IMG/VR virus record: IMGVR_UViG_2778261514_000005
Direction: 5' to 3' (one strand)
DNA from: a virus
Lineage: Duplodnaviria > Heunggongvirae > Uroviricota > Caudoviricetes
DNA length: 18,746 bases
Part shown: positions 3,005 through 7,859 of the stretch, piece after piece
Position numbering within the stretch: position 1 is the first letter of the stretch
Layout of the letters: every line of letters starts with the position of its first letter
Position numbers and translations under genes: made by a program
The notes under the pieces: generated by a model
Database searches by the model: none
Seen by the model: the letters and a program-made list of their open reading frames with translations, nothing else
What the model was told of the DNA's origin: nothing

Positions 3005-6000
3005 TCAGCTGATACTGATTCCCGCCGTGGATTTTTTCATCACCACAACCAGTAAATCACTGATGTACGTCGTCGGTGTCCAGTTGTTCGCGCCGGCAGA
3101 CGACACATTAAACGTCAGGGTGACATGACCCCGTCCTGCTGGCATGTCAATCACCGATGAGAACACCCGGCTGACATCCGTTGCCGGTTCATGAAAAATC
3201 TCTGCCCCGTTTTTCAGCACCTGCAGCTTACAGGTTGAATACCAGTACGACTGCTGATTCGGGCTGTTGACGTTCTGGTGTTTCGTCCCGCGAAACAGTA
3301 CCGGTGGAATGATAATCTGCCGGTCGAAGCCCTGGTCATCGTAAACCGTGACGGTTATCGTGCCACGGGCATAACTGTTATTCCGGGGAAAGGCTTTCCC
3401 CACCGTCTTCACCAGATCGCCTTCAATCTGGTTCGCAGACAGTTTCCCTCTGATGACACAGTTCTCGTTAATGGTGACATTATTGAGCGTGCCCGAGTTC
3501 GCACTGATATGTCCGCTGATGTCCGCATTGCGGGCTGTCAGCCTGCCCTCCGGCGTCAGGGAAAACGTCGGGGGATTGCCGGATGACGTGATACTCACCG
3601 CAAACAGTCGCTTCAGGAACACGTCGTTCATAAACAGCTGATTCCCCTGCGCCACAAACAGCGGCGTGGTGTTGCCGTTCTCCGGGGTAATCATCGCGAT
3701 ACGGTCCGCCTGCAGCAGAATATTGCTCAGCGTCTGGCCATCAGCATCCTCAATCCCCGCACCAATACCGGCAACATACGGAATGCCGTTTTTCGTTTTC
3801 TGCACCTTCAGCATGTACAGCGCTGCCAGCTCATCATTCGTGTCTGACTGGACCTGCTGTATCTGCTGTATGGTGGCGCTCTGGTCTTCCAGCTTTTTAT
3901 CCGTGGTCGAGGTGATTTCACTCCCTTTGTCATCCACGTACTGGCGGACCTGCGCTATCTGCCTGGCGTTTTCCTCCGTGCTCTGGCTGACTGTCTGTGT
4001 GATTTCACTGCTCACCCGGTCCACCTGCTGACTCACCTGCGCGATGGCCAGCGTCTGGTCCTCATTCTTTTTCGCAACCAGCTGCGTGAGGCTGTTTTCC
4101 GCCTCCCCGATTTTTCGGGTCACTTCCGCAACATCCGTCTCCAGTCGCTGGCGGATGTCTTCTTCCAGTTGCGTGACCTCAGTACGCAGGGCTGACGCAT
4201 CAATACGCTCTTTCAGTGCCTTCCCCAGCAGCGCCTCATCTATCAGCCCACGGAAAATTTCCAGATACCCTTCACCATCATTGCTGGCCTGCCCGCTGGC
4301 CTCCACAAACGCAGATTTCCCCACCAGGTTGACGCTGCGCACATAAAACCAGAAATCCTTCCCCGGCTTAATGTGCGGGCCGGAGACGCTCCACTGGCTG
4401 CCGGTACCCAGATAACGGGCAGAGGTTTCCACCTGTGCCGTGTCCGTGATGCGTTTTTCTGAGAACCAGAATTCATACTGTACCGTCGGGTCATACACCG
4501 CAGGATGCGGGACCACCGTTATCTGAAAATAGCCCGGCGTCAGTTCAATGCTGGCCGGTGCCGCCGGTGCATTAATCCGGAATGTGGTGGTGGCAGGTTC
4601 GCCCTGCTGGCCGTAGCTGTTTATCGCCCTGACCGTCAGGGTGTATTCCCCGAGCGGCAGGCCACTGAAACGGTACTCCGTGTCCGCCGTGATGGCGCTG
4701 GTCACCAGGCGGCTGTTCTCACCACTGCCACTGGTCAGGCGCAGACTGAAGCGCACGCCCTTCACCACCCGCGGCGTGTCCCATTTCGCCAGCGCCAGAT
4801 ACTGGCCGTCTGAGGCACTCACCTCCACCGTGAGGTGCTGCACTGCCGGCGGGATGACGCTGTTCAGTGAGCCGGACATCGGCTCAAAGCGGGCCCCGTT
4901 ATCCACAATGGCTTCTTTTTCCGGCACATGCTGCACCGCCGTGATGGCAAAGGTGCCGTCCGTGTTTTCCCGGATGGAAACACAGCGGAACAGGCGACGA
5001 CGCAGTGACGGCAGGGAGAGTCCCCATACCCCGTATGCCTCCACGCCATCCGGCAGGACGCTGACCTGTATCCGGTCAGGGGCCGGTTGTGCAGTGATGT
5101 CCACGCGCACCGGCTTACCGCTGCCGTTAATCAGGTTCACCGTCGATGTCCCTGTCTCAGGCAGTGTCACCTCACGGTCCAGCGTCAGGGTACGGCTGGC
5201 GGCATCGATGGACAGGATACGTCCGCCGGTCAGGGTCCCGGCATAGTCGTTATCACAGATTTCAATGATGTCACCGGGTGTGTGCCGCAGCCCCTGTGAC
5301 CCGAGCGTGAAATCCACCGTCTGCGTTTCCAGCAGTTCGGTCTTTATCACCCACAGTCCGGCACGGTGGGCCTGACCGCGGCTGGTACAGCCGAACGCAT
5401 CCATCTTCAGCAGGTTGCGCCCGTAGCGCAGGATGGCGTCCGGGTCTTCCACCAGTTCCGTGGAAGTCTGCCAGCCGTTCTGCGGGTCAGTGTAATTCAC
5501 CTCCACCGCCGTGTGCCGGTCCTTCAGGGCACTGAAGCTGTAGCGGAACCCCACGCCGTTATCATCCACCACCACATCGCTGTTGGTGTACGGCCACACC
5601 ACATCCGACGGGCGGTCCTGAACGAACGTCAGCGTCTGGCCGTTCCATACCGGCATACAGCGCATCGCCGAGCAGAAATCCCCCAGGACATCCCACACCT
5701 TACGCTGCTGTGACAGGTACGCATTAAAGGTCATCCGCGGCTCTGTGCCCCCGAAACCATCCGGGACCGTCTGGTCGCAGTACTGCCCGATGGCATACAG
5801 CGCCCACTTGTCCACATCCGCGGCCCCCAGGCGTTTTCCCATCCCGTAGCGCGGGTGGGTCAGCATGTCCCACAGGCACCAGGCCGGGTTATTGCTGTAT
5901 GCCGGTTTCAGACTCCCGTCCCAGATACCACTGTAGGTGCGTTTTTCCGGGTCATAGTTTGACGGCACCTGAATGATGCGGCCGCGGATATGGTAGTTCA

Positions 6001-6700
6001 CCACCATCTGCTGGCCACCGAACTGCTCCGCATCCACCTGCAGCCCCACAATGGCCGTGTTCGGGTAGCACTGTTTCACATCGATGATTTCGGTGTATGA
6101 CGACCACAGCGTTCTGTTCTGCAGCTGGTCCGTGGTGCTGTCCGCCGTCACCCTGACCATCCGGATATTAAAGGGGCGCTCAGGGAGATTATTCAGAATC
6201 ACCGACGTCAGGTACTGCGAGGTGGTCTTGCCGTTAATGGTGACATCCTTCTCCGTCACCCAGTTACCGTTACGCTCAAGCTGAATCAGCAGCCGGACAG
6301 AAGAGGGATTACGGTCACCCTTTGAGGTGGTCTCCACCAGTGACTGCACCCCGAAGGTGACCCGCAGACGGTCAATGTTCGCTGACGTGATGGTGCGCGT
6401 CACCGGCTTTGCCTTCGTCACCTCCACGCCCAGTGCGGTTTCCGCCCCGGAGGACTCAAAGCCTTCCGGCGGTGTCTGCTCCTGCTCCCCGGCACGCCAG
6501 ACGGCGGTCACACCGTGTATCACGGGATTACCGTCCGTGTCCGTAAGCGGGGTTTTGTTCACCAGAATACTCTGCAGTCCCTTCACCGGGCCTTCCACCG
6601 GTCCCTCACCAATGGCATCAATCACGCTCATCATCTGCGTGGATTTGAGATTGTCCTTCGCCTCACGCGGTGTGTGCCCCTTGCCGCCCCCTTTACCCAC
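3005..6700 (-). CDS. J: Tail tip / host specificity protein J (central tail fiber)
   Basis: 1231-aa track ORF. N-terminus (M)[20 protein letters not shown]... and long internal stretches are near-identical to lambda J as I recall it. The start codon is GTG at 6698-6700, preceded by a strong AGGAGAGGGGGA RBS. Confidence 0.95.
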
Positions 6701-6746
6701 TCTGTCCCCCTCTCCTGTCTGATGTCTGATGTCTGAATCTGTTTAT

Positions 6747-6779
6747 GCCCAAAAACAACAGGCACCCCGGAGGGTGCCT
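6747..6779 (-). terminator. Hairpin plus U-rich tract just upstream of the J RBS
   Basis: Minus strand reads AGGCACCC-tccg-GGGTGCCT (UCCG tetraloop) followed by GTTGTTTTTGGG. The U-tract is imperfect, so this may be an attenuator or mRNA-stability hairpin rather than a terminator. Confidence 0.35.
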
Positions 6780-6794
6780 GTGTCATGACGGAAT

Positions 6795-6953
6795 AAAATT
6801 TCTGAAATTCTTCACATTTCCGGCAATTGCCTGTAGCCGCAATAATGACGCTGCGTTACATTTTTGATGCCTGAAAAATAACTCCATAACGTTAATCTTC
6901 ATCGTTCTCTCCCGCAGCTCCGCTGATTCTGCGGGATTTTTTTATCCCTTAAA
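6795..6953. repeat. Unit 1 of a tandemly duplicated non-coding element in the I-J intergenic insert
   Basis: Shares a near-identical ~55-nt block (tcacatttc..cctgtagcc.caataatgacgctgcgttacatttt) and a conserved 3' block (catcgttctc.tcccgcag ... ctgcgggattttttta) with unit 2 about 228 bp downstream. The middle section diverges between the units. Confidence 0.6.
6910..6945 (+). terminator. Intrinsic terminator (plus strand) at the 3' end of unit 1
   Basis: tcccgcag-(11 nt loop)-ctgcggga followed by ttttttta on the plus strand. The minus strand has no U-tract after the stem, so it is unidirectional. Confidence 0.5.
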
Positions 6954-7021
6954 CCCGGCACGATGTTATCTGTCTTCTTCCACAGATACCCGCCTGGCTT
7001 CCGCTCCCCCGCTACCGGATA

Positions 7022-7178
7022 AAAAGTCTGAATTTATTCACATTTCTGCAAATTACCTGTAGCCACAATAATGACGCTGCGTTACATTTTTTGCGGGTAA
7101 ATAAAAATAAAACGCCAACAGGTTAGTCAACATCGTTCTCTTCCCGCAGGCGCCGAGCACTGCGGGATTTTTTTATTT
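7022..7178. repeat. Unit 2 of the tandemly duplicated non-coding element in the I-J intergenic insert
   Basis: Second copy of the conserved 5' block and terminator block (see unit 1). It ends directly at the I stop codon. Confidence 0.6.
7141..7178 (+). terminator. Intrinsic terminator (plus strand) at the 3' end of unit 2
   Basis: Same tcccgcag/ctgcggga stem as unit 1 but a different loop (gcgccgagca), followed by tttttttatttt. The stem is conserved while the loop differs. Confidence 0.5.
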
Positions 7179-7859
7179 TCATCCTCGCCCGATAACCACC
7201 ACTTTCCCGTCACTGCCCTCATCACGGGTGCTGATGTCCTGGGATATCCGTCGTGAGCCAACCAGCATTTCACCGTAAGGCACCGGCATCGGGTTCCCCT
7301 GGGCAATCATGTTGTCCAGTGACGAAAAATACGTGTTCTGTCTGCCGTTATCCGTGCTTTTGTACTCCGGCGTCTTTGCCTTCGGGGCCAGCATCTGGGC
7401 CACACCACCCAGTATCATGCTGGCACCCAGTGAGAACAGCATCGTGGTGGCAGTCAGCCCTCCGGCACTCAGGGCTGCGCCCCACAACGCCATCATTGCA
7501 CCGGCGGTGAAGAAAGAGCCCACGATGGCTGCTGCCCCCAGCACCACCTGAAAAACACCATTTCCCCCGGCCCCTGCCAGCCGCGGTACAATATGAATCA
7601 CGGCCCTCCCGCTCAGCGGTTCATGAAGACGGGCATACACCGCCTCCGGCGCGGTATCCTCACCGGCAATACGTATCTGGTACCAGCCTTCGTTCATCTG
7701 ACAGCGGAATCCCGGCACCTGCAGCGACAGGGCACGGATAGCCTCCGCTGCCGTGTTCACATACAGGCTGATGCGGCGACCAAATCGTTGTAAATCCCCG
7801 TGAAGGCAGATGCGGACCAGTGGCGGTGACGCCAGACAGAATGCGTTCGTCGTTGCCAT
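7179..7859 (-). CDS. I: Tail tip assembly protein I
   Basis: 226-aa track ORF. ...ICLHGDLQRFGRRISLYVNTAAEAIRAL...NTYFSSLDNMIAQGN... matches lambda gpI closely as I recall it. Confidence 0.9.
   Translation of the reverse strand: MATTNAFCLASPPLVRICLHGDLQRFGRRISLYVNTAAEAIRALSLQVPGFRCQMNEGWYQIRIAGEDTAPEAVYARLHEPLSGRAVIHIVPRLAGAGGNGVFQVVLGAAAIVGSFFTAGAMMALWGAALSAGGLTATTMLFSLGASMILGGVAQMLAPKAKTPEYKSTDNGRQNTYFSSLDNMIAQGNPMPVPYGEMLVGSRRISQDISTRDEGSDGKVVVIGRG

Follow-up and report, generated by a model that had tools for sequence, protein, structure and literature searches.

Organization of the I-J gap

The window analyzed here is an 18,746-nt stretch of DNA (IMG/VR virus record IMGVR_UViG_2778261514_000005) corresponding to the tail region of a lambdoid prophage, with every tail gene encoded on the minus strand. 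The start of gene J and the stop codon of gene I (Table 1) are separated by 478 bp (6701-7178), compared to the 60 bp that lie between these two genes in phage lambda (I end 15444, J start 15505); both figures in the original prediction, which had given a lambda spacing of roughly 60 bp, are borne out by these coordinates. The RefSeq name for J, "phage attachment tail tip protein J", comes from locus L001, whose I-J gap matches that of the window at 100%. The RefSeq annotation of that locus also names two further genes outside the gap, a porin ("porin OmpC" in L001) and an Ail/Lom-family outer-membrane protein. The porin gene looks like cargo inside the tail operon, and the Lom/Ail gene is counted with it as cargo in the window.

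Direct repeats of 78 nt (6788-6865 and 7014-7091, 86% identical), 40 nt (6874-6913 and 7105-7144, 75% identical) and 17 nt (6929-6945 and 7160-7176, 100% identical, with sequence CTGCGGGATTTTTTTAT) recur within the I-J gap with a period of 226-231 bp. The length and identity of these repeats are far beyond what is expected by chance, and they confirm the two units of about 228 bp, each with a conserved 5' block, that had been described from the sequence. The spacer between both units has been found in arrays only. Full-length matches to it are present in 14 of 5,426 complete E. coli genomes, and similar spacers occur in arrays of four units.

On the operon strand, the gap contains a terminator-like hairpin located 58 nt upstream of the J start codon, with a predicted folding energy of -26.1 kcal/mol (z = -4.7). 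Related loci retain the hairpin: 97.8% of cells are paired and a single pair changes from C-G to U-A, but covariation across these loci is not significant (one covarying pair, with 109 of 500 shuffles doing equally well). An analogous hairpin is found in the 60-bp I-J gap of lambda (L165, 746-805), and this, together with its retention in related loci, indicates that the hairpin is part of the ancestral I-J junction and not of the small RNA (sRNA) cassette. The sRNA units are thus inserted between this hairpin and the I stop codon. A terminator at such a place in a late operon would stop RNA polymerase lacking Q modification before it reaches J. A 7-nt tandem repeat lies between the hairpin and the J ribosome-binding site, with three copies in the window and two to eight in related loci, so that the length of the J leader varies.

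Table 1. Location of genes and sequence elements in the window (positions refer to the 18,746-nt stretch)
Feature	Position	Strand	Basis or remarks
Ail/Lom-family outer-membrane protein gene	2313-2975	minus	downstream of J as in lambda; L001 RefSeq name
Gene J, tail tip / host specificity	3005-6700	minus	ORF list; GTG start at 6700
J ribosome-binding site GGAGAGGGGGA	6705-6715	minus	sequence
7-nt tandem repeat TGTCTGA x3 (plus-strand reading; CAGACAT-like on operon strand)	6716-6736	minus	repeat search
Terminator-like hairpin	6750-6781 (stem 6758-6767 / 6772-6781, then UGUUUUUG)	minus	terminator scan
Unit 1 CRP-like box TCTGAAATTCTTCACA	6801-6816	plus	centre ~60.5 bp upstream of G6869
Unit 1 candidate -10 elements	AATAAT 6841-6846; TACATT 6857-6862	plus	alignments
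sRNA 1, EcOnc22/23/24 type, ~75 nt	6869-6943	plus	CLASH reads, probe match, homology
Unit 1 terminator	6911-6943 (stem 6911-6917 / 6929-6935; T7 6937-6943)	plus	
Inter-unit spacer	6944-7026	plus	found in arrays only
Unit 2 CRP-like box TCTGAATTTATTCACA	7027-7042	plus	centre ~60.5 bp upstream of G7095
Unit 2 candidate -10 elements	AATAAT 7067-7072; TACATT 7083-7088	plus	homologous alignment positions
sRNA 2, predicted paralogue, ~80 nt	7095-7174	plus	nhmmer 158 bits; ends by homology
Unit 2 terminator	7143-7174 (stem 7143-7149 / 7160-7166; T7 7168-7174)	plus	
Gene I, tail assembly	7179-7859	minus	stop codon 7179-7181; RefSeq start = window 7760
Porin gene, 364 aa	9419-10513	minus	between tail genes L and M; "porin OmpC" in L001

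Relationship of the two units to the EcOnc22/23/24 and PasB small RNAs

Both units end in a Rho-independent terminator with a 3' U7 tract, a feature of the PasB / EcOnc22-24 family. The two stems (CCCGCAG / CTGCGGG) are identical and each is followed by an A and seven T residues, with unlike loops (CTCCGCTGATT in unit 1 versus GCGCCGAGCA in unit 2). The minus strand presents an A-run before each hairpin and no T-run after it, and hence the hairpins can terminate transcription on the plus strand only, as had been proposed. A terminator scan reported the unit 1 terminator only, because the loop of the unit 2 terminator exceeds the 8-nt limit of the scanner. The corresponding fold z-scores are -2.8 and -2.1. 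The original prediction had interpreted the combination of identical stems and differing loops as selection on structure. The observation stands, but what the stems display is conservation and not compensatory change. RNAalifold applied to an alignment of 34 variants produced no consensus structure, because variable loops shift the terminator arms out of register. Within the main type the stems do not vary at all and thus provide no covariation signal.

Unit 1 is the already known EcOnc22/23/24 sRNA gene. Positions 6869-6901 of the window (GCCTGAAAAATAACTCCATAACGTTAATCTTCA) are identical to RNase E-CLASH reads assigned to EcOnc22/23/24 in E. coli O157 Sakai (Waters et al. 2017), and the reverse complement of the common EcOnc22/23/24 Northern probe matches positions 6891-6913 exactly, which gives a name to what had been raised as a possible identity with a named prophage sRNA. 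EcOnc22 (Sp15), EcOnc23 (Sp14) and EcOnc24 (Sp11) were reported as homologous plus-strand Hfq-CRAC peaks (Table S2, Tree et al. 2014, PMC4104026), and EcOnc22 yielded a Northern band of ~85 nt and was listed as "Destabilised" in a delta-hfq background (PMC4104026). In the current Sakai record, Sp11, Sp14 and Sp15 each contain a 240-bp I-J gap with a single unit, which shares with the window units its strand relative to the tail genes and its promoter block. Unit 1 is 96.9% identical over 223 bp to the VT1-Sakai unit, and the predicted mature sRNA 1, composed of an A-rich stretch with ARN-like triplets, a candidate pairing region (AACUCCAUAACGUUAAUCUUC) and the terminator, differs from the Sp15 copy at 2 nt, both in the terminator loop. 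The Sakai EcOnc coordinates published by Tree et al. 2014 and Waters et al. 2017 refer to an older record and are offset by ~133-135 bp from NC_002695.2, at 2.9 Mb and 5.1 Mb; a ~135-bp offset was confirmed via the yjbJ half of EcOnc22/23/24 CLASH hybrids. Without offset correction, the EcOnc22 peak falls on the wrong part of the I-J gap.

The second described relative of these units is PasB, an 83-nt sRNA of EPEC E2348/69 encoded on the minus strand of NC_011601 (1466343-1466261; Pearl Mizrahi et al. 2021, PMC8550237), with a log2 fold change of -6.8 in delta-hfq and 37 RIL-seq partners. PasB is encoded between I and J of prophage PP6, and it can be aligned to units 1 and 2 alike over the promoter block, body and terminator, which makes it a separate line of evidence for this family. 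It resembles them in its orientation, CRP-like box, terminator stem and homologous 5' end, as well as in its I-J location, and departs from them in its body (GUAACAAAAACAACUCCUUCACAUUGAUC...) and in presenting a perfect TATAAT. Judging by these alignments, EcOnc22-24 and PasB are one family. The Note field for PasB is blank in PMC8550237 and the term "EcOnc" is absent from a recent survey of Pas sRNAs (Zhu, Shabalina and Storz 2026 preprint), so that the equivalence is a result of the present analysis and not a cited one. According to data from others, the RNA of unit 1 and PasB accumulate in lysogens, are crosslinked to Hfq, are lost in its absence and are ligated to many mRNAs in RIL-seq. 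Together, the identity of unit 1 and the homology to PasB support the original reading of the insert as a duplicated pair of plus-strand sRNA genes opposite the tail operon.

Database annotation offers little guidance at this locus. At gathering thresholds, Rfam gave no match in the whole window to AgvB, AsxR, Esr41, STnc100, IsrG, IS009 or any other family, and relaxing the E-value up to 10 for positions 6600-7300 returned chance-level snoRNA matches only. EcOnc22-24 and PasB are without Rfam family or RefSeq annotation, public annotation has no feature under the matches listed among 803 E. coli genomes, and a full-text literature search with the RNA sequences found no paper. Some phage records do annotate "hypothetical proteins" of 32-50 aa in the gap and the plus-strand hairpin of unit 2 abuts the I stop codon, as would be compatible with a small-protein gene, a mobile-element fragment or mere terminators or insulators. 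We regard such readings as so improbable as to be practically negligible, given that the annotated ORFs lie at non-homologous positions, that no transposase or terminal repeats were seen in elements that are confined to one site, and that published Northern, CRAC, CLASH and RIL-seq data show that the RNA exists. A small-protein gene was also rejected on the grounds that the ORFs are not conserved and that public gene calls at the site are inconsistent. The small ORFs of the two window units differ and read the conserved block in different frames, in line with the lack of a conserved peptide stated in the original prediction, and a coding or mobile-element origin of the insert is rejected.

The mapped 5' end of PasB (Table S6, PMC8550237) and the common start of the CLASH reads fall on a homologous base, T6868/G6869, which sets the length of sRNA 1 at 75 nt and, by homology, that of sRNA 2 at 80 nt. 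A consensus scan detected no sigma-70 promoter in the I-J gap, matching the earlier failure to recognize a convincing one by eye. Each unit nevertheless contains two candidate -10 elements. TACATT lies 7 nt upstream of each presumed start (G6869 and G7095), and a TAnnnT sequence at this position is kept in every type, even in those without the upstream box. AATAAT, 16 bp further upstream, is replaced by a perfect TATAAT in PasB and the most frequent variants, and transcription could instead use this TATAAT-like box as its -10 if the 5' end is processed afterwards. Because it exactly predicts the measured 5' ends, we tentatively favour TACATT over AATAAT as the -10 element.

Upstream of these elements, each unit contains a sequence resembling a CRP site. 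Searching for TGTGA-N6-TCACA with at most one mismatch identified only two matches in the 18.7-kb window, one per unit, although the presence of two at this stringency is not rare per se (24 of 200 shuffles). The box reads TCTGA-N6-TCACATTT and matches 9 of the 10 core positions, with TCACATTT intact in both units and a left half-site that is TCTGA instead of TGTGA. The spacing between the box and the -10 elements is equal in units 1 and 2, and across types all intact units examined contain the box, even those recovered by searches that did not rely on it. The CRP site of class I promoters has its centre around -61.5 or one more turn of the helix upstream. The box centre lies at -60.5, within 1 bp of that value, if transcription starts at G6869/G7095, as the 5' ends of PasB and of the CLASH reads suggest, and at a non-canonical -44.5 if the TATAAT-like box is the -10. 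Spot 42 is a CRP-repressed sRNA. PasB has been found at higher levels in static LB than in virulence-activating medium, and Spot 42 behaves in the opposite manner, which would be compatible with activation of PasB by CRP if, as we assume, the activating medium is glucose-rich. From these circumstantial observations we infer putative cAMP-CRP control of the units.

Unit diversity and array structure across prophages

Two IMG/VR pattern scans and a profile search yielded 136 arrays with both flanks, all of which (136/136) lie between I and J on the strand opposite these genes. Single units predominate (124 loci; gap sizes of 239-1638 bp, with a median of 285), and the remaining gaps contain two (6 loci, 421-478 bp), three (1 locus, 715 bp) or four units (5 loci, 907-956 bp). 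At 85% identity, the sequences preceding the terminator, or bodies, fall into ~12 types. In most body types, an A-rich stretch containing ARN-like triplets is accompanied by a core resembling UCCUUA...UUAAUCUUC, which is complementary to Shine-Dalgarno-like sequences; the PasB seed has been placed in a core of this type (Zhu et al., 2026 preprint). The window RNAs deviate from the common core, with ACUCCAUAACGUUAAUC in sRNA 1 and ACGCCAACAGGUUAGUC in sRNA 2. The same survey reported only a few PasB nucleotide variants, usually one per genome, and no tandem PasB copies, discussing tandem duplication only to exclude it for PasA. Within the searchable literature, both the diversity of bodies and the arrays therefore seem undescribed.

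The sRNA 1 type is present in 542 of 5,426 complete E. coli genomes, mostly in Shiga-toxin-producing strains among the matches listed. A scan of species-representative genomes retrieved only E. albertii and a single 460-bp contig labelled as Parendozoicomonas. This contig (L126, NZ_FWPT01000051.1, from a Parendozoicomonas haliclonae assembly) carries the sRNA promoter pattern and is most likely contamination. In a different set of loci, the I-J gap harbors a protein-coding gene. An 857-bp gap contains sodC, encoding a Cu,Zn superoxide dismutase, on the sRNA strand (L128, 1031-1577), and 10 similar loci were found. In these loci sodC is followed by its own terminator and then by a PasB-family unit that has an RNA body but lacks the CRP-like and TATAAT boxes. 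Protein and RNA genes alike are thus carried as cargo in this gap, and the notion of a cargo-insertion site between I and J is thereby substantiated in the genomes of other phages.

The second unit of the window is without counterpart in the three Sakai loci, where gaps of 240 bp hold one unit instead of the two found in the 478-bp gap of the window. In its predicted product, sRNA 2, the body AAAUAAAAAUAAAACGCCAACAGGUUAGUCAACAUCG is followed by a terminator whose end lies 4 nt short of the I stop codon. The promoters of the two window units are 86% identical, and their pre-terminator bodies 58%. Unit 2 is closest to type A in its promoter (94%), to type C in its body (98%) and to type D in its terminator (97%), where type C designates the third unit of 4-unit arrays. 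By these matches unit 2 is a mosaic of three types, which fits the collapse or reshuffling of a larger array via recombination between conserved blocks. The body of sRNA 2 is found, at 90% identity or higher, in 84 of 5,426 E. coli genomes.

Such an origin raises the question of whether unit 2 is functional. Unit 1 might work alone, with unit 2 being a recombination by-product, unexpressed or targetless, and the array lacking adaptive meaning. This reading would account for the three-part mosaic and for the rarity of the exact two-unit layout, as gauged by the 14 genomes with a full-length spacer. In addition, the ATAAT box is degraded or lost in the type C units of 4-unit arrays, so that type C could be poorly expressed in general. 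We nonetheless consider an inactive second unit unlikely. In unit 2 the CRP-like box is intact, both -10 candidates are present, the 5' part is rich in ARN motifs and the terminator is perfect, and the 98% identity of its body to type C in independent arrays, together with its presence in 84 genomes, argues against free decay.

Proposed mode of action and implications

Taken as a whole, the I-J insert is very probably a two-gene array of PasB / EcOnc22-24 prophage sRNAs. Under this explanation, each unit would form a gene complete in itself, encoded opposite the tail operon. The conserved upstream block would supply the CRP-like box together with weak -10 elements, and transcription would begin near G6869 or G7095 and stop at the Rho-independent terminator, yielding an RNA of ~75-80 nt. 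The U-tail and the A-rich, ARN-like stretch would mediate Hfq binding, and the single-stranded segment 5' of the terminator would pair in trans with host or prophage mRNAs, altering their translation or stability. As sRNA 1 and sRNA 2 differ in this pairing segment, they probably have different target sets. Activation by cAMP-CRP from a class I-like position would make these RNAs reporters of carbon-source status, and recombination between the conserved promoter and terminator blocks may both generate and reshuffle the arrays. The CLASH partners of EcOnc22/23/24 are low-count hybrids, such as a 10-bp duplex (CCAUAACGUU/AACGUUAUGG) inside the yjbJ coding region. Scanning the translation-initiation regions of the window for targets gave no useful information: the top candidate, the J ribosome-binding site at -28.3 kcal/mol, barely passed the 5% background of -26.2 kcal/mol with a method that allows large loops.

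The invariable location of the arrays invites an alternative explanation in which the RNAs act in cis, pairing with the I-J part of the late tail-operon mRNA during induction or superinfection. Such pairing could trigger RNase III cleavage or alter J expression, leading to tuning of tail-tip production or to a handicap for a related incoming phage. All 136 loci are antisense at exactly the I-J junction, with position conserved while the body sequence varies, and the convergent arrangement ensures full complementarity. The original description of the units as antisense to the tail operon is right with regard to strand, but the complementarity involves only an untranslated intergenic stretch; no CDS or ribosome-binding site is overlapped, and sRNA 1 ends ~170 nt upstream of the J start. 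Moreover, PasB resembles a trans-acting sRNA in RIL-seq, with its 37 partners, antisense RNAs with full complementarity do not usually depend on Hfq, and lambda makes tails without any such insert. Cis-antisense action is accordingly disfavoured, and we deem it distinctly improbable.

A role as anti-sRNAs, or sponges, sequestering core sRNAs in the manner of AgvB and AsxR, is a further alternative. AgvB and AsxR (Rfam RF02702 and RF02703) are, like the window RNAs, short, Hfq-bound products of EHEC lambdoid prophages with a modular layout of variable 5' part and conserved 3' part. The EcOnc RNAs, themselves short prophage RNAs containing ARN motifs, come from the same Hfq-CRAC screen, and chimeras of PasB with the pasA region are among those recorded by RIL-seq. 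AgvB and AsxR differ from the window RNAs in their length of 51-60 nt, in their sequences, which are unrelated, and in their position close to stx, downstream of PR'. They sponge GcvB or FnrS, an action for which the window RNAs show no support. Their Rfam models gave no match even at E-values up to 10, which together with the different prophage location rules out identity with either RNA. In a seed-mimic test restricted to GcvB, which compared duplex energies with those of shuffled sequences, the complementarity of the window RNAs was no better than that of shuffled ones (fractions of 0.29 and 0.37). PasB, in turn, has over 67% of its interactions with CDS or 5'UTR, the criterion applied by the authors (PMC8550237). 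The sponge reading thus finds no support in either GcvB pairing or the AgvB/AsxR models, and we judge it very unlikely.

The two units have parallels among other adjacent paralogous sRNA genes. OmrA/OmrB and PrrF1/PrrF2 are such pairs, each gene with its own promoter and terminator, located in the core genome and under known regulators. They are comparable to the window pair in their shared regulation and partly differing sequence. The units described here, in contrast, are carried by a mobile element and occupy one fixed junction within a phage operon, where as many as four cassettes, of ~12 body types overall, are found. Among prophage sRNAs, HnrS (EcOnc10-12) is a multicopy RNA repressing hha (2025 preprint). 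Like the window RNAs, it is Hfq-associated and gained repeatedly with prophages, and gene dosage has been proposed to matter. HnrS is a different RNA, so identity with the window RNAs was discarded; its copies are identical and located one per prophage on separate prophages, in contrast to the diverged, tandem copies within a single prophage seen in the window.

The feature identified in the I-J gap is hence real and largely known, sRNA 1 having been described already under two names. The tandem arrays, the link between EcOnc22-24 and PasB and the CRP-like box appear to be undescribed. What is new is therefore modest: a second paralogue with a divergent seed, the architecture of the arrays, the link between names and the CRP hypothesis. 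The PasB / EcOnc22-24 family is common and yet has been treated in the literature under two unconnected names. In practical terms, these results point to one regulator to check, allow probes specific to each unit to be designed and offer natural variation in the seed with which targets can be mapped.

A broader reading, which we advance tentatively and consider less likely than not, is that the I-J junction of lambdoid prophages constitutes a dedicated, expandable cassette site for host-directed sRNAs. In such a site, the exchangeable part would be the pairing region, flanked by a CRP-responsive promoter block and a terminator that both stay constant, and recombination between the constant blocks would build arrays of one to four genes and swap pairing regions between phages. 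If this is true, a lysogen could gain in one step several regulators with different targets under carbon-source control, in an RNA-level parallel to protein cargo such as sodC at the I-J site. Should both the CRP control and the distinct target sets hold true, these prophages would tie the regulation of host genes to the sugars available in the gut, and this link would bear on colonisation by STEC and EPEC.
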